Shown here piece after piece: positions 37,462-64,000 of a stretch of 64,000 nt of DNA (positions within the stretch are counted from its first letter, which is position 1; each line of letters starts with the position of its first letter). This DNA is from a virus: IMG/VR virus record IMGVR_UViG_3300023184_005116, positions 38,758 to 102,757 of that record. One strand, given 5' to 3'. A program made the position numbers and the translations under genes. The notes beneath the pieces are model-generated. The model was not told the DNA's origin, did not search any database, and worked only from the letters and a program-made list of their open reading frames with translations.

Positions 37462-39247
37462 GCAAGCAAATAAAGAAATTAAGGTACTTTCAGAAAGGGA
37501 TCATATCCTTTTAAGACCTACTGTTTATGTAGGTAGTGTTAAACCAACAGACGAAAAATTACCTATTGTAAGGGATAAAAAATTATTCGTAGAGCAAAGA
37601 ACCATATCAGTAGGTATGTACAAACTGTTTGATGAAGTTTTTTCAAATTCATTAGACGAGGCTAAAAGGATGGGTGGTAAAATGCAAAAAATTACCATTA
37701 ACATAGACTCATCAAAAAATTCGGTTTCAATAAAGGATACTGGTAATGGATTCTACAAAGGAACTGAAATAAATTCAACAAGTGGAAAAAGTAATATTGA
37801 AACAGCGGTTTCACAGCTAAGGGCAGGATCAAATTTTGATAATGACGATATTGAGGAATCACTAGTTGGAACAAATGGAATGGGTGTTAGCTTAGTTAAC
37901 GTTCTTTCTGAATACTTCAGTATAGAAACTATAAATGATAAATTTTACTATTTTCAAGATTGGAAAAATTACGAAGCTAATAATCCTCAAAAATCTAGTA
38001 AAACACCAGGAATGAAAGCAGGAACGGCTGTTTCCTTTATACCTTTATCTGAAGTTTTCGGACATTCTAAATGGGATAAAGAGGTTTTATCCTCAATCTT
38101 AATATTAAAGTATGACTTGATTAAAAGAGATCCTGTATTAGGAAAGCTTGAGATAGAACTAAATTGGGACGGAAGAGGTATAGATCTTAATGTAGATTTT
38201 GTAACGGAAGACTCTTTTAAAATCAATACTGAAATTGGACAAATTACTATATGGGAAAAATATGAGGGATCCGGTTCTTTAAGTTTTGTAAACTCCGCCC
38301 TTTGTACAGGAATACACCAAAAAATAGTAAACGATTTTATCAATGAAAAACTTGATGATACTTTAGGACACCATTTTTATGATTCACTTATAGTTTTAAA
38401 CTTACCCCCTAAATATGTCAAATTTGGCGATCAAAACAAGACTAGGTTTGTTACCACAAGAGAAGAGATCGAAAGTGTCTTAACGAGCAAGTTTGGATCC
38501 AAATTACAGACATTTTTTAAGACTGAACTGTATGAGAATATTTTAAAAAAGGTAGAAGAGCGTAAGAACGATGGGTATGTTAAGAAACTTAGATCTGAAA
38601 AGAAAAAGGTTAATCTTAAGCATTCTCATAAATATTTCCCAGCACAAAAATCAGTAGCAGAAAATCTATTTATAGTGGAGGGTCTTTCTGCAATGGGATC
38701 TATCCTACAGAAAAGAAACCCAAAGGAAGATGGTGTTTATGCACTAAAGGGTAAAATAAAAAACTGTAAGAACATTGGGGATCTTTCTGACAACAAAGAA
38801 ATATTAGAACTAATGCACATTCTTGGATTAGACCCAACTGCAAGAAATTCTGAAATTGTAGGTTATAAAAGAATAGTAATCGCTACCGATCCTGACCCTG
38901 ACGGCTCACACATTACATCTTTAATAATCAATTTATTCTATAAATGGTTTCCCACAGTAGTTAGAAATAAAAGATTAGGCTCATTAAAAATCCCACTGGT
39001 ATCTGTTGGGGATGGCAAAAAAAGGAAATACTATTGGGACTTAGAGGAATTTAAAAATGCTAAGCCCTCTGGTAATGTTAGGTATTTAAAAGGCCTAGGA
39101 TCTTTAGCTCTTGATGACTGGGATTGGGTAATGAAAGATAAATCGCTTTTAATTATAGAGGATAGTCAAGATAGTAAGGAAAAGCTAGAAATGGCTTTTG
39201 GAGATTCTTCAGAAGCAAGAAAAAGGTGGCTTTCGAATCAAAAGTAG
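37454..39247 (+). CDS. Type II DNA topoisomerase, ATPase/TOPRIM subunit (gp39+gp60-like)
   Basis: HILLRPTVYVGS, EVFSNSLDE, DTGNG, GTNGMG, VEGLSA, LKGK, TDPDPDGSHI, YLKGLGS. Confidence 0.92.
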   Translation: MAKQANKEIKVLSERDHILLRPTVYVGSVKPTDEKLPIVRDKKLFVEQRTISVGMYKLFDEVFSNSLDEAKRMGGKMQKITINIDSSKNSVSIKDTGNGFYKGTEINSTSGKSNIETAVSQLRAGSNFDNDDIEESLVGTNGMGVSLVNVLSEYFSIETINDKFYYFQDWKNYEANNPQKSSKTPGMKAGTAVSFIPLSEVFGHSKWDKEVLSSILILKYDLIKRDPVLGKLEIELNWDGRGIDLNVDFVTEDSFKINTEIGQITIWEKYEGSGSLSFVNSALCTGIHQKIVNDFINEKLDDTLGHHFYDSLIVLNLPPKYVKFGDQNKTRFVTTREEIESVLTSKFGSKLQTFFKTELYENILKKVEERKNDGYVKKLRSEKKKVNLKHSHKYFPAQKSVAENLFIVEGLSAMGSILQKRNPKEDGVYALKGKIKNCKNIGDLSDNKEILELMHILGLDPTARNSEIVGYKRIVIATDPDPDGSHITSLIINLFYKWFPTVVRNKRLGSLKIPLVSVGDGKKRKYYWDLEEFKNAKPSGNVRYLKGLGSLALDDWDWVMKDKSLLIIEDSQDSKEKLEMAFGDSSEARKRWLSNQK

Positions 39248-55654: not shown

Positions 55655-56043
55655 CATCAGCAAACGTTATAGAATATACAATATTCAAAGGAGAAGAAGA
55701 AGTAGGAAGACACCGACAAAACATTATGTGTAAAAGATGCAATGATGGTCTAGAAAAATTCCAACCCTCAAATGAATTTACTATCCAAGCTTGGGGATAT
55801 GACGAAGAAGAGGAATTATGGGAGAATGATAAAAGGGAGAATCTAGATGGGTGGTTAAAAAAGAATACTGCTGAAATCACCTTTAGAAAATTTGAGGAAG
55901 GTGAAGCAGTAAAACTAACAAAGAAAAGAGGGTCTGCGATTATACTTGAATCAAGGAAGGGTAATTTTTTTCCTGAGTACAAGGTACAAGTTATAGGAGG
56001 AGAAATACTAGATTCAGTCCAACAAGGAGAAATAATACCATGA
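55651..56043 (+). CDS. Hypothetical protein
   Basis: 130 aa, ATGA overlap. Confidence 0.5.
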   Translation: MTSANVIEYTIFKGEEEVGRHRQNIMCKRCNDGLEKFQPSNEFTIQAWGYDEEEELWENDKRENLDGWLKKNTAEITFRKFEEGEAVKLTKKRGSAIILESRKGNFFPEYKVQVIGGEILDSVQQGEIIP

Positions 56044-56513
56044 ATATAAAAGAAAATTTAAAATTAGCAACTGACATTACCACAGTAACATTAGTCGGAT
56101 TTCTTGGGGATTATCCAAGAGAAAGAGGAAATTGTTTTTCCGTATCTGTAGAAGGTGAAAGAGATTACAGGATAATCAATTTTAATTATGAAAATCTAGA
56201 AAAGCTTATAGAGGATAATGTGGTTTCTTTTCCTTTAAAGATCTCTAAGTTATCTGATAGAATTGCCATCGTTGCGGATGAAAGAATCCCAGATGAGTGG
56301 TATTCTAAAAGATTTTGTGAAACATGTACTCCTTCGGATCTTTTACCTATACCGCAAAGGCTTAAGCACTTATTGGACATCGAAAGAGGTATAAGGGAAG
56401 AAAGAGAAATTGAAATCGACGGGAAAAAAATGAAAATGGTTTCTATAAAAGTAGAACCTAAAATAATTCATGTCCCATGGACAATAGAAACTAATCAACC
56501 AGAAAATGAATAA
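56040..56513 (+). CDS. Hypothetical protein
   Basis: 157 aa, ATGA overlap. Confidence 0.5.
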   Translation: MNIKENLKLATDITTVTLVGFLGDYPRERGNCFSVSVEGERDYRIINFNYENLEKLIEDNVVSFPLKISKLSDRIAIVADERIPDEWYSKRFCETCTPSDLLPIPQRLKHLLDIERGIREEREIEIDGKKMKMVSIKVEPKIIHVPWTIETNQPENE

Positions 56514-56515
56514 TA

Positions 56516-56758
56516 ATGAGTAGGTATGTAGTAAAGCTCGAAGAGCAAAAAGAATTTGTTTATGGATGGGATCATGCACTAGGATATTTCTACGAAGTGT
56601 GGGATAACTCATTAGGTGACGAAGAAGCAGATTGTATAGTTGAAGATAAGAATTCCCTATTCAATAAAATGTCCAAAGGACAAATGGTAGAGGCTATGGG
56701 GAAGTATGGGGCTAAAGTAGAGCACATAAAAAAGGCAGCTTTAGATCTGCCATTTTAA
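56516..56758 (+). CDS. Hypothetical protein
   Basis: 80 aa ORF. Confidence 0.5.
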   Translation: MSRYVVKLEEQKEFVYGWDHALGYFYEVWDNSLGDEEADCIVEDKNSLFNKMSKGQMVEAMGKYGAKVEHIKKAALDLPF

Positions 56759-56774
56759 TTCTTTTCCCTTTAAA

Positions 56775-57377
56775 TTACTTAACTAAATAGCCGGAAATAT
56801 TAGATACTAGGTTTACAACCTCTTCTTCTAATTCTTTGGTTATTTTAATTTTGTGCTTTACTGTATGTAATTGTATAAATCCTGTTAATTGTCCAGATAA
56901 GGTCCTAACTGGTGCAGATATAACTTGTAAGATACCTTCGTCTGTTACTTTACCCCTAATATAATCTAACACTGGATCTTCTGCATTAACATAGAAAAAT
57001 TCTCTCTCACTTAGATGTTTAATTAAAGATGGGTGTTCAGTAACAAAAACACTTTGGTTGTGTTCCTTCGATTTTGAAACACCGTGTGAAACTGATTCAA
57101 AAGTCTGTGAGTATTTCTTCATAGGTACACCATGAAAAAATTTACCACCATTATGAAACTGAAAAATGCCTATCCTATCTAAATTCCACTTTTCTCTAAA
57201 GCAATCTATAAAATTTTGTATTTCGAGCATTGTATCAACATCTTTCTGTGATATGCTTTCATACTTATCATCGTCAGAAGCTTTCTTTTTGACATCTAAT
57301 GAATGCTTTAACCAGACAGATCCTAATGCAACAGCAAGTGAAAAAATTCCAGTTATAATTATTTGTAACAGTTCCAA
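56775..57377 (-). CDS. Single-TM protein with GAF-like domain (T4 holin T-like architecture, putative)
   Basis: N-terminal TM, FQFHNGG...TFE, ISAPVRTLSGQLTGFIQL. Confidence 0.55.
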   Translation of the reverse strand: MELLQIIITGIFSLAVALGSVWLKHSLDVKKKASDDDKYESISQKDVDTMLEIQNFIDCFREKWNLDRIGIFQFHNGGKFFHGVPMKKYSQTFESVSHGVSKSKEHNQSVFVTEHPSLIKHLSEREFFYVNAEDPVLDYIRGKVTDEGILQVISAPVRTLSGQLTGFIQLHTVKHKIKITKELEEEVVNLVSNISGYLVK

Positions 57378-57395
57378 TTTAGTATTTTATTTTAA

Positions 57396-57992
57396 TTAGT
57401 CCTCAAATCCTCCAAATCTCTTAAGTAGACTTGCACCTTGACCAAGCTCCTCTTTCTTCAAGCTAGGAGGTAATTCAATTTTTTGAATTGATGAAGGATC
57501 TTCCTCCATTTTTCTTCTAATAAGCTCTTTATAAGACTCGTTGTTGTAAAGATCGTTGTCGGTAACTGGAAATCCTTGACGTTGGATCAAATACTTAACT
57601 AAAAAACTCATTTTATATAAGTAATCTTCTACTGTCATACAAGCTCTTCTAAGATCTGTATTTAATCTTGCAAATTCTGATGATTTAGAAGTACCTGACC
57701 ATATCTTAATACTTCCATTGTGCATGATATTATAATAAGGGAAGTTCTTTTTACTTCCTGCTAAAGCTGGATGGAAGAAAGCGATATTACCCAATCTATC
57801 TTTAAAGTATCTTTGTTCCTCTGTTCCTACAACTTCAATTCCTTCTGGGTTATCTGCTAATCTCTCAACAAATCCCATTGCAATCATATCTTTATAAATT
57901 TCAGATTCTCTTATAGGTTTAAAATTAGTAACCGGGCATTTTTTTGGTCTCCTAACCTCTTGGATCTTTCTAAACGCTTGATATTTTTCCAT
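57396..57992 (-). CDS. Hypothetical protein; paralogue of 47834-48772
   Basis: C-terminal GASLLKRFGG; GAATATATA on the minus strand at 58012-58020. Confidence 0.55.
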   Translation of the reverse strand: MEKYQAFRKIQEVRRPKKCPVTNFKPIRESEIYKDMIAMGFVERLADNPEGIEVVGTEEQRYFKDRLGNIAFFHPALAGSKKNFPYYNIMHNGSIKIWSGTSKSSEFARLNTDLRRACMTVEDYLYKMSFLVKYLIQRQGFPVTDNDLYNNESYKELIRRKMEEDPSSIQKIELPPSLKKEELGQGASLLKRFGGFED

Positions 57993-58146
57993 ATCGTTTT
58001 TTTGTTTTCTTTATATATTCATTCTACTCGCGAACTCCGAGAATTTTTCAAAGAACATTGAAATTTTTTATGTTTATGTCAGTATATTATACATCTCCAG
58101 CAGTTTAAGGGCTTAAAAATCCTTTTTCTTGCTTCTCCATATACCG

Positions 58147-58181
58147 AAAAGCCCGATTCTTTTTTTAGAATCGGGTTTTTT
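58147..58181. terminator. Intrinsic terminator-like hairpin, possibly bidirectional
   Basis: aaaag-cccgattct-N6-agaatcggg-tttttt. Confidence 0.7.
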
Positions 58182-58210
58182 ATTCGGGAATTTTCTATTA
58201 TAATTGCGGT

Positions 58211-58750
58211 ATGAAGTTTATGACATTTTTAGAGCTATTGCAAAATACAAATCCTCCACACTCTGTTATGTTTCGTTTAGAAGCATTAAAGGGGTTAAGA
58301 GAAAGACCTGATTTCCATCCAGAGGAAAGCGCTTTCGAGCATATTAAGATTGTGACTGAAAGACTTATGCAGACTAATGATCCTGATCTTATTTTAGCTG
58401 GATGTTTGCACGATCTATTTAAACACGATACAGTAAAGATTAATCCTAAGAACGGATTTCCAACCTGTCCTGGGCATGATACCGAAGTAGCAAAATTTAT
58501 TTGGTCTAATGAAGAAGTGCAAGAATGGATTAAAGGGTTAGGGGCGGACGTTGATACTGTTGCAAATCTTTGTAAAGATCATATGAGATTTCATCAGTTT
58601 GATCAGATGAGAAGGGTTAAACAACAAGAGTTTATGAGTAGACCTCATTGGGGTAAACTAGAATTTCTTGGAGCAGCAGATAATATGCTAGAAGAATTTG
58701 ATATTGATAATTTAGAAAAATCCTGGAAATGGAAAAGAAGTACGATTTAA
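58211..58750 (+). CDS. HD-domain phosphohydrolase
   Basis: FHPE...EH, LHDLFK, GHD, HMR, AD. Confidence 0.8.
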   Translation: MKFMTFLELLQNTNPPHSVMFRLEALKGLRERPDFHPEESAFEHIKIVTERLMQTNDPDLILAGCLHDLFKHDTVKINPKNGFPTCPGHDTEVAKFIWSNEEVQEWIKGLGADVDTVANLCKDHMRFHQFDQMRRVKQQEFMSRPHWGKLEFLGAADNMLEEFDIDNLEKSWKWKRSTI

Positions 58751-59814
58751 ACATACTTAAGGAATATATTGATGCCGGATTGGTCGAAAAAAACGACCAT
58801 CCAGTTTATCCTATTTCTATTTACAACTACAGTAGGGATTGTCAGTTTGAAAAAAAGTGGGATAATATTACCTTAAATATGAGAGGTACTATTCTCGATA
58901 CGCAAGGAAATCTGATAGCAAGAACATTTCCTAAATTCTTTAATATGGAAGAAATGGAAACAATTCCCAATGAAGAATTTGATGTGTTTGAAAAAATGGA
59001 CGGATCTTTGGGGATACTTTTCTATTATGAAAATGAATGGATATTATCTACAAAAGGTTCTTTTTCTTCCGATCAAGCAGTAAAAGGATTTGAAATGCTT
59101 AGTTCTTATGATTACCAAAAGTTACATAAGGATTATACCTACCTCTTTGAGATTATCTATAATGAAAACCGTATAGTTTGTCAATATGATTTTGAGGATC
59201 TTGTTTTACTTGGGATGATAGAAAACAAAACGGGGTATGAGGTAGATCTTTACGAAGATGGTAATGATATAAGATTAAAAAATCTAATAAACAATATTGG
59301 ATTTAAAATAGTCAAAAAATACTATGGAATAGAGGACTACAGGAAGCTAAAAACATTAATTGAAAATAATCATGAAGGATTTGTTCTTAGGTTTAAATCT
59401 AAATTAAGGATGAAAATAAAAGGTGAGGAGTATGTAAGATTGCACAGACTCCTTACAAATTTCTCCAATGTCGATATTTGGGAAAGCCTTATGCTGGGTA
59501 AAGATCTTAGTCTTATGCTAGAAAAAGTCCCTGATGAATTTGATAGCTGGGTTAGAAATGTCATCTATGATCTTAAAATAAAGTTTAAGGTTAGAGAAGA
59601 ACGTGCAAAAGAGATTATGTATAATCTGATAACTAACAAGGGTTTATCAAGAAAGGAGATAGCTGAAATACTTAATTTTGAAACATCCATGAATAGGACT
59701 ATAATATTCTGTATGTTGGACGGAAAAGATTACTCAAGCATTATCTGGAAAAACATTAGGCCAGTTTATCAAAAGCCTTTTTGGTATAAAGAAGATGAAA
59801 ATTATACAAATTAA
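58729..59814 (+). CDS. RNA ligase 1 (T4 Rnl1-like)
   Basis: FPKFFN, EKMDGSLG, TKGSF, LFEII, EGFV, KIKGEEY. Confidence 0.88.
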   Translation: MEKKYDLNILKEYIDAGLVEKNDHPVYPISIYNYSRDCQFEKKWDNITLNMRGTILDTQGNLIARTFPKFFNMEEMETIPNEEFDVFEKMDGSLGILFYYENEWILSTKGSFSSDQAVKGFEMLSSYDYQKLHKDYTYLFEIIYNENRIVCQYDFEDLVLLGMIENKTGYEVDLYEDGNDIRLKNLINNIGFKIVKKYYGIEDYRKLKTLIENNHEGFVLRFKSKLRMKIKGEEYVRLHRLLTNFSNVDIWESLMLGKDLSLMLEKVPDEFDSWVRNVIYDLKIKFKVREERAKEIMYNLITNKGLSRKEIAEILNFETSMNRTIIFCMLDGKDYSSIIWKNIRPVYQKPFWYKEDENYTN

Positions 59815-59872
59815 TAATTATAAATATGACTGAACCATTAACAAAAGGTTATGTAAACAAAAATATTACTTA

Positions 59873-59997
59873 TAACGATACTCAGATATATTCAGTTGTT
59901 TATTAAATAATAAAAAATATGATTACAGAAGAAAAATACTTAAAAGCATTACAGGTTGTTAAAGACTATGAAAAACAATTGAATATATCTGTTGTTA
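59873..59997 (-). repeat. attC-like site, long class (125 bp)
   Basis: TAAC gatact CAGATATATTCAGTTGTTT ... AAACAATTGAATATATCTG tt GTTA. Confidence 0.8.
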
Positions 59998-60098
59998 GAT
60001 GTAGTTGCGAACCAGTAAAAACTAAAGATGAAAATGGTAATGGATTATTTGTGAGTCCTTGGTGTTGGAAGTGCAACACTTGGTGCAATTACATCTAA
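59919..60098 (+). CDS. Cassette protein, Cys-rich; not in ORF track
   Basis: Manual translation, 59 aa MITEEKYLKALQVVKDYEKQLNISVVRCSCEPVKTKDENGNGLFVSPWCWKCNTWCNYI; stop is the TAA of the next TAAC. Confidence 0.65.
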   Translation: MITEEKYLKALQVVKDYEKQLNISVVRCSCEPVKTKDENGNGLFVSPWCWKCNTWCNYI

Positions 60099-60217
60099 CG
60101 TATAGATGCAAAAGCAGTTTAATTTTAATTATATGACAAAGAAACAAAAAGTAGAAGAAGCTATCAAAGAAGCAGAAAAGGAATTAGAACGCCTTAAATT
60201 GCTTTTACATAGTGTTA
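60096..60217 (-). repeat. attC-like site, long class (122 bp)
   Basis: TAAC gtatag ATGCAAAAGCAGTTTAA ... TTAAATTGCTTTTACAT agt GTTA. Confidence 0.8.
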
Positions 60218-60306
60218 GTGGCAGTGCTTTAGAAGTATGCCCCTATTGTAAAACTAAAAATAGACATTGGTATGCAAAAGATTATTGGTGCTGTTCGTTT
60301 TGTTAG
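60133..60306 (+). CDS. Cassette protein with Zn-ribbon-like C-terminus
   Basis: MTKKQKVEE...HSVSGSALEVCPYC...CCSFC; starts inside the attC loop. Confidence 0.6.
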   Translation: MTKKQKVEEAIKEAEKELERLKLLLHSVSGSALEVCPYCKTKNRHWYAKDYWCCSFC

Positions 60307-60315
60307 CATTGCCAC

Positions 60316-60432
60316 TAACGGTTGGGTGTATATGTAGTGATTTACACTGAACTTTATTAGAAGAAATGAATATAATTATTAACAGACAAGGTTGATTAGA
60401 TGTAGTAAAATCATTACATATACACCCTGTTA
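60316..60432 (-). repeat. attC-like site (117 bp)
   Basis: TAAC ggtt GGGTGTATATGTAGTGATTT ... AAATCATTACATATACACCC t GTTA. Confidence 0.85.
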
Positions 60433-60464
60433 TAAGTAGTAAAACAAAAATAAACTAAACAGAT

Positions 60465-60758
60465 ATGGAAACCTTTAGAGAAAAACAAGAAAAATTTGAT
60501 AAATTAATTTCAGAACTTAATTCTGATTTTATTTGTGGTGCAGCAGTTGGAACAAAAGTAAAAGATAGTTCTTTGTATATAGCGGAAGAGTCAACAAAAA
60601 TTTATGGTACTGAAAAATACAAAATAGGAACATTTAACCAAAAAAGTGTAATTATTGACCCACATATTAAATGGGGAGATATGAGAATTTTTGATGAATC
60701 TGGAACGGAATTAATTAATTTATCAAATTTTGGATTTGATATAATGGATATGATTTAA
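60465..60758 (+). CDS. Cassette hypothetical protein
   Basis: 97 aa ORF filling one cassette. Confidence 0.6.
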   Translation: METFREKQEKFDKLISELNSDFICGAAVGTKVKDSSLYIAEESTKIYGTEKYKIGTFNQKSVIIDPHIKWGDMRIFDESGTELINLSNFGFDIMDMI

Positions 60759-60829
60759 TTTTTGTTTTATTTCATTTATACTTTGTTATGTTTAACGAAG
60801 TGTAGTTGTGAGGAACGAACAATTAAACA

Positions 60830-60877
60830 TAACGGATGAGTGTAAAAAATCGTTTTAATGTTTTTTACACTTTGTTA
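60830..60877 (-). repeat. attC-like site, short class (48 bp)
   Basis: TAAC ggatg AGTGTAAAAAA tcgttttaatg TTTTTTACACT tt GTTA. Confidence 0.85.
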
Positions 60878-60905
60878 TAAGTATGTAAAACAAAAATTAT
60901 ACAAT

Positions 60906-61067
60906 ATGAAAGTAAAAATAATAAAAGAACACAATGGAATACCAGAGGGTTCAGTGATACATGTGGAAAAAGAATTGAAAAACGATTACAAAGGAATTTG
61001 GTCAAGTATGATGGGTTCTTATACAGTTAAGGTAAAGAAGAAATATTGTGAAATTAAAAACTCATAA
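60906..61067 (+). CDS. Cassette hypothetical protein
   Basis: 53 aa from ATG 60906. Confidence 0.55.
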   Translation: MKVKIIKEHNGIPEGSVIHVEKELKNDYKGIWSSMMGSYTVKVKKKYCEIKNS

Positions 61068-61085
61068 TTTTTGTTTTATTACTTA

Positions 61086-61211
61086 TAACGTATGGCAGCT
61101 AAACGCTGTTGGAGATTTGAAACACTAAATTATAAACTTAAAATAAAATTAATATGAAAAACAAAACTTCAAACTTAGACAAAACCGCCAATAGCGATTT
61201 AGGTGTTGTTA
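61086..61211 (-). repeat. attC-like site, long class (126 bp)
   Basis: TAACG...CTAAACGCTGTTGG ... CCAATAGCGATTTAG...TGTTA. Confidence 0.75.
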
Positions 61212-61384
61212 GCGGTAGTTTAACTCATATTCCACTATTTCAGTATATTGCTGCGGTGGAAGCACATAAGAACACGTTAGATTTACTTGCAATAGTACAA
61301 AATGACAAAAAGGAATTGAAATTAGATTTAGAAGCAGCATATAAAGAAATTGACCGATTGAACGTCAAACTAAATTACCGCTAA
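61154..61384 (+). CDS. Cassette coiled-coil protein
   Basis: Starts inside the attC loop and reads GVVSGS across the core; stop is the TAA of TAAC. Confidence 0.6.
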   Translation: MKNKTSNLDKTANSDLGVVSGSLTHIPLFQYIAAVEAHKNTLDLLAIVQNDKKELKLDLEAAYKEIDRLNVKLNYR

Positions 61385-61429
61385 CGTCCCATGATAAACA
61401 ATCGTTTTAATGTTGTTTATCATTTGTTA
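61382..61429 (-). repeat. attC-like site, short class (48 bp)
   Basis: TAAC gtccc ATGATAAACAA tcgttttaatg TTGTTTATCAT tt GTTA. Confidence 0.85.
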
Positions 61430-61472
61430 GGTTTTGTCATTAATTTGTTTTACCTTTGTAAAAATTAAAAAT

Positions 61473-61691
61473 ATGGAAAATAAAAACACAAACGAAGAAC
61501 TTGAGTATTTTCAAAATAAACTCAAGGAAACTATGGGTAAAGGATTACCTAAAAAATATCTTGAAACAACTGACTTGGGTGAAGTCGATAAGGAATATAA
61601 ACATAGATTCAAAGAACGAATTGAAAAACACTTAACAGAAGTTGATAGAATTAAAAATATGATAGGCGATTCAAAACAAATTAATGATTGA
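61473..61691 (+). CDS. Cassette hypothetical protein
   Basis: 72 aa from ATG 61473; TACCTTTG at 61451 matches the Bacteroidota -7 element. Confidence 0.55.
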   Translation: MENKNTNEELEYFQNKLKETMGKGLPKKYLETTDLGEVDKEYKHRFKERIEKHLTEVDRIKNMIGDSKQIND

Positions 61692-61694
61692 ACC

Positions 61695-61781
61695 TAACGG
61701 TTGGGTATATACGAAGTACCCATATCACGAACTTTAAATTTAGTACAAACCTTAATGGGGTATTTCGTATATACCTTGTTA
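61695..61781 (-). repeat. attC-like site, medium class (87 bp)
   Basis: TAAC ggttg GGTATATACGAAGTACC ... GGTATTTCGTATATACC tt GTTA. Confidence 0.85.
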
Positions 61782-61796
61782 TAAACTGTAAAAATT

Positions 61797-61985
61797 ATGG
61801 ATTTAACACACGAACAAAAATTAGAAAAGAAACAAATAGTTAGAGATGAACTGAAAGGGAAGATAAAACATCTTTATATGTCATTTCTAAGTGAAATGGA
61901 AACACAATATCCACCTTGGTTAAATAAAGATGATGTTATTAATGTTTTGTCTTCCCTGATATTAGATGAGACGAAACTTAAATAA
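61797..61985 (+). CDS. Cassette hypothetical protein
   Basis: 62 aa ORF filling one cassette. Confidence 0.55.
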   Translation: MDLTHEQKLEKKQIVRDELKGKIKHLYMSFLSEMETQYPPWLNKDDVINVLSSLILDETKLK

Positions 61986-61998
61986 TTTTTATTGTTTA

Positions 61999-62046
61999 TA
62001 ACGATTGCAAATAAAACATCGTTTTAATGTGTTTTATTTGTTGTTA
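61999..62046 (-). repeat. attC-like site, short class (48 bp)
   Basis: TAAC gattg CAAATAAAACA tcgttttaatg TGTTTTATTTG tt GTTA. Confidence 0.85.
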
Positions 62047-62083
62047 TGTTTTAGTTTTAAAAATTTTATACAAATAAAAAAAT

Positions 62084-62329
62084 ATGAAATACGAAAGAGA
62101 ATACCAAGTGTTTGCAAAAGAAATAACCGATAAGTTTATATCAATGGTTACTGGTGAATTACCAACGCAATGTTTTTGTGGAGAAATGTCTGATGGGCCA
62201 AGTAGAATACCAACAGAAGAAGAGCAACGAGAATTTTTTAAAGAAAATAACAAATATGCGTTGGAGTGGTTGAACAAAAATATGGTGACTTATGACGAGT
62301 GGATTGCGAAGCATAAAACAAATTCATAA
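62084..62329 (+). CDS. Cassette hypothetical protein
   Basis: 81 aa ORF filling one cassette. Confidence 0.6.
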   Translation: MKYEREYQVFAKEITDKFISMVTGELPTQCFCGEMSDGPSRIPTEEEQREFFKENNKYALEWLNKNMVTYDEWIAKHKTNS

Positions 62330-62347
62330 AATTTTTAAAATTAAACA

Positions 62348-62434
62348 TAACGGTTGGGTATTGGCGAAGTGCCACCAGTACAAACTTAAATTCAAGGCAC
62401 AAACTATCTGTGGCATTTTGCCAATACTGTGTTA
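62348..62434 (-). repeat. attC-like site, medium class (87 bp)
   Basis: TAAC ggttgg GTATTGGCGAAGTGCCAC ... GTGGCATTTTGCCAATAC tgt GTTA. Confidence 0.85.
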
Positions 62435-62480
62435 TAGGTAGTTGTTTTAAAAATTAGCGTTGGCATTAAATGGTTTAAAT

Positions 62481-62762
62481 ATGAAAATTCCAAATACAAC
62501 AGACGAAAAACCTTATATTGAATTTAGAATTGATAAAAAAGGTAAAATTAAATTATCAGCTACATCAAATTGGTGGGGAGGAAAAAATGCTGGTTTCTCA
62601 TCTTCTGATGGAACGGAAGGTAATACTTGCGAACCAAAGCATTTAAAAGCATACATTAAAGCATTTAAAGAGAAAAAGATTAAGAATATTGAGAAAGAAA
62701 TTTTAGCATTACAAAAGCAATTAGAAGTTGTTGAATCTGAAACCGAGCGTTGGGATTTTTAA
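62481..62762 (+). CDS. Cassette hypothetical protein
   Basis: 93 aa from ATG 62481 (alternative GTG 62460). Confidence 0.6.
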   Translation: MKIPNTTDEKPYIEFRIDKKGKIKLSATSNWWGGKNAGFSSSDGTEGNTCEPKHLKAYIKAFKEKKIKNIEKEILALQKQLEVVESETERWDF

Positions 62763-62774
62763 AACAATTACCTA

Positions 62775-62900
62775 TAACGTTTTGCGGCTAACAGAAGTTG
62801 GCGATTACGAAGCACAAATTTTCAATTATAAAAAAAATTAAATACAAAGCAATGAACTACAATAAACCACAAAGCCGCCAATTTTTGTTAGGTGCTGTTA
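62775..62900 (-). repeat. attC-like site, long class (126 bp)
   Basis: TAACG...CTAACAGAAGTTGGCG ... CGCCAATTTTTGTTAG...TGTTA. Confidence 0.8.
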
Positions 62901-63091
62901 TAGGTAGTATTTTGAGGTTGGGTTTCAAGATTATTAATTGCAATCACTTTAAAATGAAAGCACATAACGGTAAACCTTATTATAAAAGTATTGTAAAAAT
63001 TAAGGGATTTAGAACTGCTGTCGTTGACAGATATGATGGAAATAGAAGTACAAATAGGTTTTATTGGCGTGTCGGCAAATATTACCTATAA
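62852..63091 (+). CDS. Cassette basic protein
   Basis: MNYNKPQSRQFLLGAVIGS...; starts inside the attC loop; stop is the TAA of TAAC. Confidence 0.6.
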   Translation: MNYNKPQSRQFLLGAVIGSILRLGFKIINCNHFKMKAHNGKPYYKSIVKIKGFRTAVVDRYDGNRSTNRFYWRVGKYYL

Positions 63092-63136
63092 CGGTTGATG
63101 ATAAACAATCGTTTTAATGTTGTTTATCATTTGTTA
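63089..63136 (-). repeat. attC-like site, short class (48 bp)
   Basis: TAAC ggttg ATGATAAACAA tcgttttaatg TTGTTTATCAT tt GTTA. Confidence 0.85.
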
Positions 63137-63179
63137 TAAGTATGTATTATTTTTGTTTTACCTATTAAAAAATTAAATT

Positions 63180-63395
63180 ATGACACAAGAAAAACTAATT
63201 GAAATTTGGGACACTATACCAAATAAACATAAAAATTATAGTGGGGTTGAGGTAGTTGGTGAAATTGAAATTATGGGATATTTCACGAGAAAAGAATTAG
63301 ATGTTGCTGAGAAAAAAGGTTGGTTGTATAATAATCATGCTGAGTATGATATGGGAGAACCATCTTATAATTTAATAAACTCAAAACAAAAATAA
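63180..63395 (+). CDS. Cassette hypothetical protein
   Basis: 71 aa ORF filling one cassette. Confidence 0.6.
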   Translation: MTQEKLIEIWDTIPNKHKNYSGVEVVGEIEIMGYFTRKELDVAEKKGWLYNNHAEYDMGEPSYNLINSKQK

Positions 63396-63404
63396 TATTA
63401 CTTA

Positions 63405-63491
63405 TAACGGCTGGGTATATGTGAAGTACCTTACCACAGAACTTAATAATTTAGTAGAAACATTATAAGGTATTTCACATATACCTTGTTA
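63405..63491 (-). repeat. attC-like site, medium class (87 bp)
   Basis: TAAC ggctg GGTATATGTGAAGTACCTTA ... TAAGGTATTTCACATATACC tt GTTA. Confidence 0.85.
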
Positions 63492-63507
63492 TAAAACGTT
63501 TTATTTT

Positions 63508-63723
63508 ATGGAAAATAATATTGAAAAATGGATGAAAGAGTGGGTTGATAGAACATCAAAAGTTAAATATGAAAACTCTTTCAATGAGAAGAGTGATGAA
63601 TGGATTGAGATTGAAGGTATTGGTAGATTTAAAGGACTTGAGATTGTCTCAGAAGAACATCAAGATATAAATGAGATAACAATCAATCTCAAATATGATG
63701 TGTGGGATAAAAATGTTTTATAA
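63508..63723 (+). CDS. Cassette hypothetical protein (integrase-proximal cassette)
   Basis: 71 aa; stop is the TAA of the terminal TAAC. Confidence 0.6.
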   Translation: MENNIEKWMKEWVDRTSKVKYENSFNEKSDEWIEIEGIGRFKGLEIVSEEHQDINEITINLKYDVWDKNVL

Positions 63724-63745
63724 CTATATTATATATGCAACTCTA
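63718..63745 (-). other. Candidate attI-like site
   Basis: The last TAAC is followed by T rather than G and by no hairpin; minus strand reads GAGTTGCATATATAATATAG|TTATAA; lies between array and integrase. Confidence 0.55.
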
Positions 63746-63776
63746 GTTAATTGATTCATTATTAATACTTTAGAAC

Positions 63777-64000
63777 ATGAAAAAGACCGACTATTACAAG
63801 ATTTGCGAACAAAAATTGAAGTACTTGAATTATTCGGACAGAACGGTTGAGTGTTATCTTTCCTATATAAATCAGTTTTTGGATAGAATAGAAATTCCAC
63901 CTACTCGGCTAGGTTCACAAGACTTTCAATCCTATTTGGACAACTATAAATTCACTTCGGTTTCTCAACAGAATCAAGTAATATATGCAATCAGATTTCT
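63777..64000 (+). CDS. intI: Integron-integrase-like tyrosine recombinase, N-terminal SAM-like domain (truncated by window end; not in ORF track)
   Basis: Manual translation MKKTDYYKICEQKLKYLNYSDRTVECYLSYINQFLDRIEIPPTRLGSQDFQSYLDNYKFTSVSQQNQVIYAIRF matches the IntI/Xer N-terminal pattern YSxRTxxxY..P..L....S.SxxNQ...A..F; catalytic domain not visible. Confidence 0.75.
   Translation, partial: MKKTDYYKICEQKLKYLNYSDRTVECYLSYINQFLDRIEIPPTRLGSQDFQSYLDNYKFTSVSQQNQVIYAIRF

Follow-up and report, generated by a model that had tools for sequence, protein, structure and literature searches.

Gene-bracketing inverted arms with a fixed G·T pair in a phage cassette array: candidate folded sites of an Xer-like tyrosine recombinase

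Introduction

Integrons, such as the class 1 and Vibrio chromosomal integrons, consist of a gene cassette array located beside the gene for a tyrosine recombinase, IntI, which points away from the array. Their attC sites fold into hairpins that end in RYYYAAC and GTTRRRY and leave a central spacer between the R and L boxes unpaired, with exchange at AAC/GTT, and the selection of strand and DNA form is made by extrahelical bases in the L box of the folded site together with the I2 insertion of the enzyme. In IntI, it is this insertion that recognizes the extrahelical bases, and insertion and bases have been described as co-evolved (PMC4792948, PMC2727003); the origin of I2 has been called a chicken-and-egg paradox (Escudero et al. 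2016, PMC4792948). Most integron cassettes self-pair over 9–11 nt, beyond the 7-nt boxes (Bouvier et al. 2009, PMC2727003), and what Qi et al. (2023) described in phages were integrons captured from bacteria, together with attC clusters lacking an integrase. The present report concerns a different system, namely a cassette array located at 59873–63724 of a 64,000-nucleotide stretch of the IMG/VR virus record IMGVR_UViG_3300023184_005116 (positions 38,758–102,757; hereafter the window), the inverted arms that bracket its units, and the tyrosine recombinase gene that adjoins it.

Several other systems are related to this array in one respect or another. The single-stranded attP of the filamentous CTX phage folds into a hairpin resembling an Xer core site, with two inverted 11-bp arms and a centre that is not fully paired; one strand only is the substrate, and the host enzymes XerC and XerD integrate the whole phage genome at the host dif site. 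Xer sites themselves, i.e. those of XerC/XerD and of archaeal XerA, are ordinary duplexes used in chromosome dimer resolution, and the pdif modules of Acinetobacter plasmids are genes bracketed by inversely oriented 28-bp duplex XerC/XerD sites on which host enzymes act. In T4-type phages, stem-loops known as PeSLs are located between small variable genes and have been linked to gene shuffling (PMC2839356, PMC4122927).

Comparison of the window with related phage loci suggests that the arms of the array are probably the two strands of the cleaved-side (R) binding arm in a folded single-stranded site of the adjacent Xer-like tyrosine recombinase.

Results

Arms and G·T pairs of the array

The window is the final 64 kb of a linear contig of 102.7 kb, with almost all genes on the + strand. 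The array at its right end comprises 13 short units with 12 hairpin cores between them. The cores open with TAAC, close with GTTA, and fall into three unrelated types (A, B, and C) that alternate along the array. Past the last unit lies a conserved stretch, followed by the first 74 codons of a tyrosine recombinase gene.

When all GTTA/TAAC combinations were scanned, each of the 13 units between 59994 and 63724 was found to be bracketed by a GTTA+N arm at its start and the complementary N'+TAAC arm (arm') at its end. Every inverted repeat listed in the original prediction was recovered with its sequence and coordinates, as was the G·T pair that it had placed at position 11, or at position 12 after a 1-nt bulge, in 12 of the 13 units. 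Nine units (59994, 60214, 60429, 61208, 61426, 61778, 62431, 62897, and 63488) carry an ungapped G·T at position 11, and three (60874, 62043, and 63133) contain one extra base in the GTTA arm followed by the G·T. The single exception is a 49-nt mini-unit (60785–60833), which has 11 perfect pairs and no such wobble. Eleven arm pairs scoring at least 12 were detected in the 4-kb array versus 0 in the 98,557 nt that make up the rest of the contig, and the shuffle control yielded a mean of 0.025 and a maximum of 1 over 200 shuffles; a chance origin of the arm pairs is excluded. Within the window, the two arms of one unit form 5.69 Watson-Crick pairs over the six positions 5–10, compared with 2.81 for the 156 non-own combinations. 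The stem length, predicted as 11–26 bp, requires qualification: the conserved part is 15 bp long, with pairing at background by position 16, and the stems that extend further, up to 26 bp, are peculiar to single cassettes.

Covariation of the arms in related phage loci

The N-terminus of the recombinase has 50 relatives in IMG/VR, many of them on contigs of 100–360 kb, and arrays of the same build were found upstream of the recombinase gene in the related loci. Hairpins in these loci were detected by folding, and the best TAAC partner within 1.5 kb was assigned to each GTTA arm using a score based on positions 5–9 and 12–16 only, with position 11 left out of partner choice. The resulting sample contains 129 unique arm pairs from 40 related phage loci, and all counts were scripted.

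A partner scoring at least 8 of 10 was found downstream for 164 of 437 hairpin arms, compared with 15 of 422 in the upstream control. Positions 5–9 are occupied by 55 different 5-mers among the 129 pairs, and all four Watson-Crick pair types occur at positions 5–10 and 12–15. Position 11 is nevertheless G·T in 97 of the 99 ungapped pairs, and in bulged pairs the G·T directly follows the extra base in all 28 cases. In a profile whose partners were chosen on positions 5–9 alone, pairing persists through position 15, and position 16 is already at background. Between both ends of the same cassette, 9.43 of the 10 variable positions pair, versus 4.19 of 10 for the two flanks of one hairpin, indicating that the arms match across the cassette body and not across the hairpin. 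A lack of covariation of the outer arms in homologous cassettes had been named as the observation that would overturn the original prediction; the arms of one and the same cassette do covary. The bulged class of R arms showed no significant link to the short type A cores (Fisher p = 0.32).

No arm pair was found beside the 12 nearest homologues in bacterial genomes, several of which have little upstream sequence. For annotation, the arm rule delimits cassettes very specifically, with 0 false pairs in 98 kb of contig and 0 in the 12 bacterial loci.

Inner-stem wobble and site geometry

The inner stem of 92 of the 126 unique cores contains a G·T wobble in an AGT/ATT context; its G is on the 5' strand, and its T, on the 3' strand, precedes the G of GTTA by exactly 15 nt. 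The wobble of the R arm sits 10 nt after this G of GTTA. The two wobbles are therefore 25 nt apart on the 3' strand, a spacing that fits two 11-bp arms, each with the wobble as its 10th pair, on either side of a 6-nt centre (11-6-11). Read outward, the half-site consensus sequences of the R arm (TTATATGTAGT) and the inner arm (ATATATGAAGT) are nearly alike; in both arms, the wobble G lies on the strand running 5' to 3' outward from the centre, and the inner arm bases (TAA/TTA, ATA) are palindromic. The centre is partly unpaired, with 6 nt on the 3' strand and 9–10 nt on the 5' strand, and is asymmetric, the 5' strand being 3–4 nt longer (typically CGGTTGGGT versus ACCTTG). Its unpaired spacer forms an internal loop in which CGGTTG (5' strand) is typically opposite TT-G (3' strand).

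The presence of a mirror wobble in the inner stem suggests that the closed site consists of two inverted 11-bp half-sites around a 6-nt centre, i.e. the geometry of Xer/dif sites. One folded strand would thereby present the layout that defines CTX attP-type sites, namely two inverted arms of about 11 bp around a centre of 6–8 nt. The inner stems of the 126 unique cores are mostly continuous, with few unpaired positions and no bulge at a fixed position. The type A cores contain no inner-stem G·T; they have a T·G one or two positions earlier, and their invariant loop ends the inner arm.

Cassette unit and insertion site

Cassettes common to different loci indicated the extent of the exchanged unit. 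Loci L014 and L025 have one cassette in common at 97% identity, which is recombinase-proximal in L014 and internal in L025, and the homology runs with sharp boundaries from the TAAC 5' of the core to the next TAAC. The same boundaries were observed in the pair L011/L016, the downstream cores of which are of different types. The core thus moves together with the gene located downstream of it. BLAST matches between the cassettes of the window and other loci begin at TAAC and extend through core, arm, and leader as far as the ATG. At the junction next to the recombinase, variable cassette sequence gives way to conserved sequence at TAA|C. From these boundaries and this junction, the cassette can be written as C-core-GTTA-arm-gene-arm'-TAA, the two arms of which adjoin only in a circle or by single-strand pairing across the gene. 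The comparison also points to an exchange point in the TAAC 5' of each hairpin, and the cassettes appear to move as discrete units, as judged from one clear case and one pair with 74% identity. Identical contigs aside, three pairs of cassettes homologous at the DNA level are informative among the loci, and the unit boundaries are thus drawn from few cases together with the clustering of BLAST starts at TAAC.

The right side of the attI-like insertion site (63721–63776; CTATATTATATATGCAAC...) is conserved among the related loci. Its right half (63725–63776 in the window; compared in L001–L031) reads CTATnATATATCAACACC in most loci and CTATATTATATATG in the window, L022, L030, and L031, indicating that at least two site variants go with recombinase subgroups.

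The heads of the cassettes (core, arm, and leader up to the start codon) are 75–94% identical among cassettes with unrelated genes. In the window, the head regions matched to other loci are 60830–60939, 61382–61480, 61695–61800, 63087–63183, and 63405–63518. The 15-nt tails must fit these conserved heads, which raises the question of how new genes enter between head and tail.

Folding strand and stability

With DNA energy parameters, the fold of the + strand was more stable than that of the minus strand in 138 of 143 closed sites, by a mean of 4.3 kcal/mol; both the cassette genes and the recombinase gene have the + strand as their sense strand. Elsewhere in the R stem, 14 further wobbles were counted versus 2 A·C mismatches. 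At the places of the wobbles, duplex DNA has G-C and A-T pairs, and the folded minus strand has A·C. The wobbles therefore exist in the folded + strand only and are well placed to signal strand and form.

The closed site has an energy of -22.2 kcal/mol versus -15.1 kcal/mol for the core with its flanks in the array, and was the more stable of the two in 142 of 142 comparisons (by about 7 kcal/mol). In a single-strand DNA fold of 62330–62920, pairing between the arm and arm' spans the gene, in the centroid as well as in the minimum-energy structure. Of the two GTTA partners that had been proposed for each TAAC, the long-range one is thus taken in this fold.

The GC skew is positive over nearly the whole window and negative only around 10–12 kb and 56–58 kb. 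If this skew is replication-derived, the + strand would be the lagging-strand template, which is left single-stranded and is the same strand that folds.

The recombinase

The recombinase gene of the window (63777–63998, + strand) encodes a 74-amino acid N-terminus with a Phage_int_SAM_4 domain and is cut by the contig end. The contig ends were checked for terminal overlap as a sign of circularity and none was found; a circular contig is thereby ruled out, and the gene is simply truncated. Over these 74 residues, the relatives are 53–81% identical. The full-length relatives have 266 residues, as do nearly all of the 120 best database relatives, and carry SAM-like and catalytic domains.

The 266-residue relative in L002 gave its best NCBIfam match to XerA_Arch, below the cut-off, and the best relative among solved structures is 4a8e, a Pyrococcus XerA-like protein. 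With the integron-integrase model TIGR02249, L002 scored 146 bits in two stretches versus a cut-off of 265, and its alignment with VchIntIA (2a3v) skips about 48 residues. A bacterial IntI used as a positive control (L066) scored 407 bits and contains about 54 extra residues at the same place. Scoring under the cut-off and having no insertion, L002 does not carry the I2 helix, the additional domain near patch III by which the IntI family is recognized.

Ordinary integrases of Cellulophaga and Polaribacter phages are the nearest enzymes from cultured phages (38–39% identity), and the genomes of bacterial species contain only a small number of close relatives, most of them in Bacteroidota. About 10% of the array is matched at 84% identity by an uncultured 462-kb phage record. 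The recombinase gene is carried by the phages themselves and, in dozens of viral loci, lies next to an insertion site of its own; the carriers are a widespread family of large uncultured phages, probably of Bacteroidota.

Organization of the array and other features

All features of the array lie on the + strand. Its distal end carries an arm'-type sequence, ATTACTTATAAC (59856–59876; repeat family D17), before the first hairpin core; this is presumably the left half of the original insertion site. Type A cores are short (48 nt, invariant loop TCGTTTTAATG), type B cores have 87–117 nt, and type C cores have 122–126 nt and contain an ORF (open reading frame) start. The first core (59873–59997) is of the long type C, with an ORF start and an inner-stem AGT/ATT wobble. 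It precedes cassette body 1 (59994–60099; arms 59994–60008 and 60085–60099, 15 bp, G·T at 11), which is separated by a type C core with an ORF start (60096–60217) from body 2 (60214–60319; arms 60214–60228 and 60305–60319, 15 bp, G·T at 11). A type B core (60316–60432; inverted repeat I22) with an inner-stem AGT/ATT wobble leads to body 3 (60429–60781; I8 and I16).

The arm of body 3 (60429–60451) pairs over 23 bp, with the G·T at 11, with 61067–61089, a perfect partner that it has in common with the unit at 60874. Its own tail (60755–60781) is decayed, ends in TATAC instead of TAAC, and is followed by no core; the decayed site as a whole (60755–60790) continues with TTT-GTTA and looks like a deletion that fused two units. 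The mini-unit at 60785–60833 follows a remnant of a core 3' half, the sequence before it resembling the 3' half of a decayed core. Among all loci compared, only one other copy of the mini-unit was found, in L002 (7137–7187); the two copies are 49–51 nt long and have the form GTTA-N7 ... GTAGTT(T)GTGAGGAAnGAAC ... N7-TAAC, with a conserved middle.

The array continues with a type A core (60830–60877, 48 nt; D1) and body 5 (60874–61089), the arms of which (60874–60897 and 61067–61089) form 10 bp, an extra T, the G·T, and 12 bp. Next come a type C core with an ORF start (61086–61211), body 6 (61208–61385; arms 61208–61222 and 61371–61385, 15 bp, G·T at 11), a type A core (61382–61429), and body 7 (61426–61698; I6). 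The latter has 26-bp arms (61426–61451 and 61673–61698) with a T·G at position 9, a mismatch at 10, and the G·T at 11. A type B core with an inner-stem wobble 15 nt before GTTA (61695–61781) precedes body 8 (61778–62002; I17), whose 21-bp arms (61778–61798 and 61982–62002) include a T·T at 10 and the G·T at 11. Body 9 (62043–62351; I14) lies between a type A core (61999–62046) and a type B core with two inner-stem wobbles (62348–62434), and its arms (62043–62066 and 62328–62351) have the extra base and the G·T at 12.

Body 10 (62431–62778; I5) has 24-bp arms (62431–62454 and 62755–62778) with the G·T at 11, and these are the arms paired across the ORF in the single-strand DNA fold. The proximal part of the array consists of a type C core with an ORF start (62775–62900), body 11 (62897–63092; arms 62897–62912 and 63077–63092, 16 bp, G·T at 11), a type A core (63089–63136), body 12 (63133–63408; arms 63133–63157 and 63384–63408 with 10 bp, an extra T, the G·T, and 14 bp), and a type B core with an inner-stem wobble (63405–63491; I25). 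Body 13 (63488–63724; arms 63488–63502 and 63710–63724, 15 bp, G·T at 11) adjoins the recombinase and closes with TAAC, with no hairpin downstream.

All 12 cassette ORFs share the strand of the recombinase gene and are directed toward it. Searches of these ORFs (53–97 amino acids, 59919–63723) against Pfam and PHROGs gave no match above threshold; two are Cys-rich, with CxxC pairs, and may encode small zinc-binding proteins. Four ORFs (59919–60098, 60106–60306, 61154–61384, and 62852–63091) begin in type C loops and cross GTTA into the body. Three of these end on the TAA of the closing TAAC (60098, 61384, and 63091) and the other ends 10 nt earlier (60306); all four encode x-V-[VSI]-[RSI]-[CG]-S over the arm (GGT/GGC AGT = Gly-Ser), and each sits within one cassette according to the unit boundaries found here. 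An Rfam scan of 56000–64000 gave nothing above threshold; the sole sub-threshold hit, a RybB-like match outside the array (58118–58184, 28.8 bits against a cut-off of 40, E = 0.013) located just upstream of an ORF at 58211, is probably a chance hit. Phage genes of the contig include those for a T4-type RNA ligase (Rnl1) and a ClpP-type protease, with weak sub-threshold matches to a gp23-type capsid protein and a seg-type GIY-YIG nuclease.

Discussion

A model can be built on what the sequences show of the arms (their covariation, the two wobbles, and the geometry of the site), of the bias toward the + strand, of the limits of the cassette unit, and of the type of enzyme in the relatives. In this model, an excised circle would join arm'-TAA to C-core-GTTA-arm, and its + strand would fold into a complete site with a 15-bp R stem composed of the 11-bp binding arm (TTATATGTAGT) and 3 closing pairs, the inverted second arm (ATATATGAAGT) being supplied by the hairpin core. 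The G·T at the 10th pair of each arm would provide the symmetry that two recombinase monomers would require. A pair of recombinases would bind the folded + strand, one monomer per arm, and cut at TAA|C, and the wobbles may mark for the enzyme the strand and the DNA form that are its substrate; binding, cleavage at this point, the use of a single strand, and the role of the wobble are predictions from the sequences. In a single-stranded array, the R stem would form across each gene, next to the following core, and this cross-gene stem would give each TAA|C a full 15-bp arm in place of the 4–5 bp offered by the local hairpin.

The original prediction is thus partly supported, being right in its main inference and in need of reframing. 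The extra outer stem that it expected in excised circles is present in the sense that the arms of the same cassette extend and stabilize the stem of the closed site, yet this stem is not an addition outside a classical attC site; it would be the 11-bp binding arm itself with 3 further pairs, in a site of the Xer-type 11-6-11 layout. The proposal that the mismatch replaces extrahelical bases fits the mirror wobble, the mostly continuous inner stems, and a recombinase without the IntI insertion. The figure of about 7 bp that it gave for classical R'/R'' complementarity is too low, considering that most cassettes self-pair over 9–11 nt (PMC2727003), and an extended R stem as such is thus not new.

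Several points weigh against the proposed recombination site. The type A cores, which account for 22 of the 129 unique cassettes, lack the inner-stem G·T, and the two-wobble rule is thus not universal. The double-stranded attI-like site would be bound without a wobble, indicating that the wobble is not required for binding as such. The enzyme type is taken from relatives, since the recombinase of the window is cut by the contig end, and the direct evidence for the unit boundaries comes from two cassette pairs (97 and 74% identity). The + strand is also the mRNA strand, and the wobble bias would thus suit RNA folding equally. All of the evidence is, finally, sequence evidence.

The last point but one leads to the explanation, raised as an alternative in the original prediction, that the gene ends pair in the transcript, where G·U is allowed, to form RNA stems for RNase III-type processing, exonuclease protection, or a translation brake, with the inner hairpin alone as the recombination site. 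The folding strand is indeed the sense strand, and several cassettes have the arm directly before the ATG and arm' at or just past the stop codon (61778 and 63488), suggesting that both arms are probably transcribed. A promoter that would exclude the arm from the transcript is not evident, only 17 of the 129 leaders having a Bacteroidota-type -7 box (TAnnTTTG) downstream of the arm and before the ATG, at a density hardly over that of gene bodies. RNA stems, however, would not call for TAAC/GTTA to be invariant, for the wobble to keep to a single position, or for a stop at 15 bp, a length that is short for RNase III. The mirror AGT/ATT wobble and the matching half-site consensus are, moreover, the signature of a dimeric DNA-binding enzyme, and the unit boundaries and the attI-like junction fall exactly on the TAAC that closes the stem, so that RNA stems are an unlikely account of the arms. 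It is also conceivable that the arms are a passive trace of cassette origin or common descent, either as shared head-tail modules or through a copying process that makes terminal inverted repeats, in which case the outer pairs and the mismatch would have no present function. Such a trace would accord with the 75–94% identity of heads among cassettes with unrelated genes and with the recurrence of arm families, as in units 60429 and 60874, both of which match 61089. But pairing is kept in >95% of cells in spite of the 55 different 5-mers at positions 5–9, copying would yield perfect repeats, whereas 127 of the 129 pairs have their G·T at the same fixed place, and the abrupt loss of pairing after position 15 points to selection for a set length; this explanation appears decidedly improbable.

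The two remaining explanations would assign the array to a known system. If it were an ordinary integron, the arms would be the known 9–11-nt extension of R'/R'' in attC sites recombined by IntI (Bouvier et al. 2009, PMC2727003). The recombinase gene pointing away from the array, the attI-like junction, the AAC/GTT triplets, and the unpaired centre are all as expected of an integron, but the recombinase family scores under the integron-integrase cut-off and has no IntI insertion, the inner stems have wobbles and no fixed-position bulge, the genes all face the recombinase with the hairpin 5' of its gene, and the 15-bp stem carries a fixed wobble. The system is not a classical integron, failing on the enzyme, the extrahelical bases, and the gene direction, and we regard this assignment as very improbable. 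The hairpins could otherwise be PeSL-like promoter or terminator modules of a T4-type phage whose genes are shuffled by homologous recombination, with the arms being incidental. The T4-like genes of the contig (Rnl1 and the weak gp23 and seg-type GIY-YIG matches), and the run of small orphan genes are in line with this, PeSLs being conserved stem-loops found among genes of this kind. Neighbouring cores are, however, of unrelated types and hence offer no homology for exchange, the boundaries lie on a 4-nt motif, dozens of loci have a dedicated recombinase next to the array together with a conserved insertion site, and a model driven by homology leaves no room for arms that covary across the gene; we give this possibility next to no weight.

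Taking the arms as parts of a folded recombinase site, the array resembles integrons in its position beside a tyrosine recombinase gene that points away from it, in hairpin sites that end in AAC...GTT around an unpaired centre, in the outer half of the R stem, which comes from the far end of the cassette itself and is complete only in the circle, and in the folded strand, which is the sense strand of the recombinase gene. Its ends agree with RYYYAAC ... GTTRRRY; TAAC and GTTA were prescribed by the search pattern, and independent support comes from position 5, where T/G is compatible with Y/R, and from the boundaries and the junction in TAAC. The differences from integrons lie in a phage enzyme without I2, in one G·T at the 10th pair of each arm instead of fixed extrahelical bases, in the 15-bp R stem, in the carrier, which is a large phage, and in the gene order: integron genes are promoterless, lie 5' of attC, and read away from intI, whereas here the hairpin is 5' of its gene and the genes read toward the recombinase. 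The CTX attP is similar in that a folded + strand forms two inverted 11-bp arms around a partly unpaired centre; it differs in the use of host XerCD at the chromosomal dif site, in contrast to the single phage-encoded recombinase, the many small cassettes, and the own insertion site of the present system, and the CTX site is not known to have fixed wobbles. The 11-6-11 layout deduced from the 25-nt wobble spacing, the palindromic inner bases, and the XerA_Arch match are in common with Xer/dif core sites, which are ordinary duplexes, whereas the two arms of the present site are 40–140 nt apart in the duplex and would meet by folding.

Pdif modules likewise consist of genes bracketed by inversely oriented Xer-type sites, without hairpin cores, covarying arms, or wobbles. 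PeSLs are similar as stem-loops between small variable genes of large myovirus-like phages, but act via sequence homology, without a dedicated recombinase, a fixed 4-nt exchange point, or cross-gene pairing; the one conserved repeated sequence that characterizes them was not found in the array, which has three unrelated core types and exchange at a 4-nt motif. In the literature searched, which left most subscription journals outside, no report was found of phage cassette arrays with I2-less Xer-like recombinases or of a fixed wobble in either arm.

In integron research, recombination of folded single strands has been held to need a new protein part, I2, that co-evolved with the extrahelical bases. 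Here, the sites appear to fold into the plain Xer-type 11-6-11 layout, with two wobble pairs as their sole fixed irregularities and an enzyme without I2. That an I2-less Xer-like recombinase recombines folded single-stranded sites recognized by one G·T at the 10th pair of each arm has, in our estimate, an even chance of being correct. Should the wobbles be the signal for strand and form, hairpin recombination could be built from an ordinary Xer enzyme and the origin of integrons would become testable. The short rule set (a 15-bp arm with the G·T at the 10th pair) could also be altered freely by experiment. If it is the signal, the wobble would be either a second, independent solution to the selection of strand and form or a model of the state before extrahelical bases and I2, and the long-range pairing of the arms would let every cleavage point in a single-stranded array gain a full binding arm.

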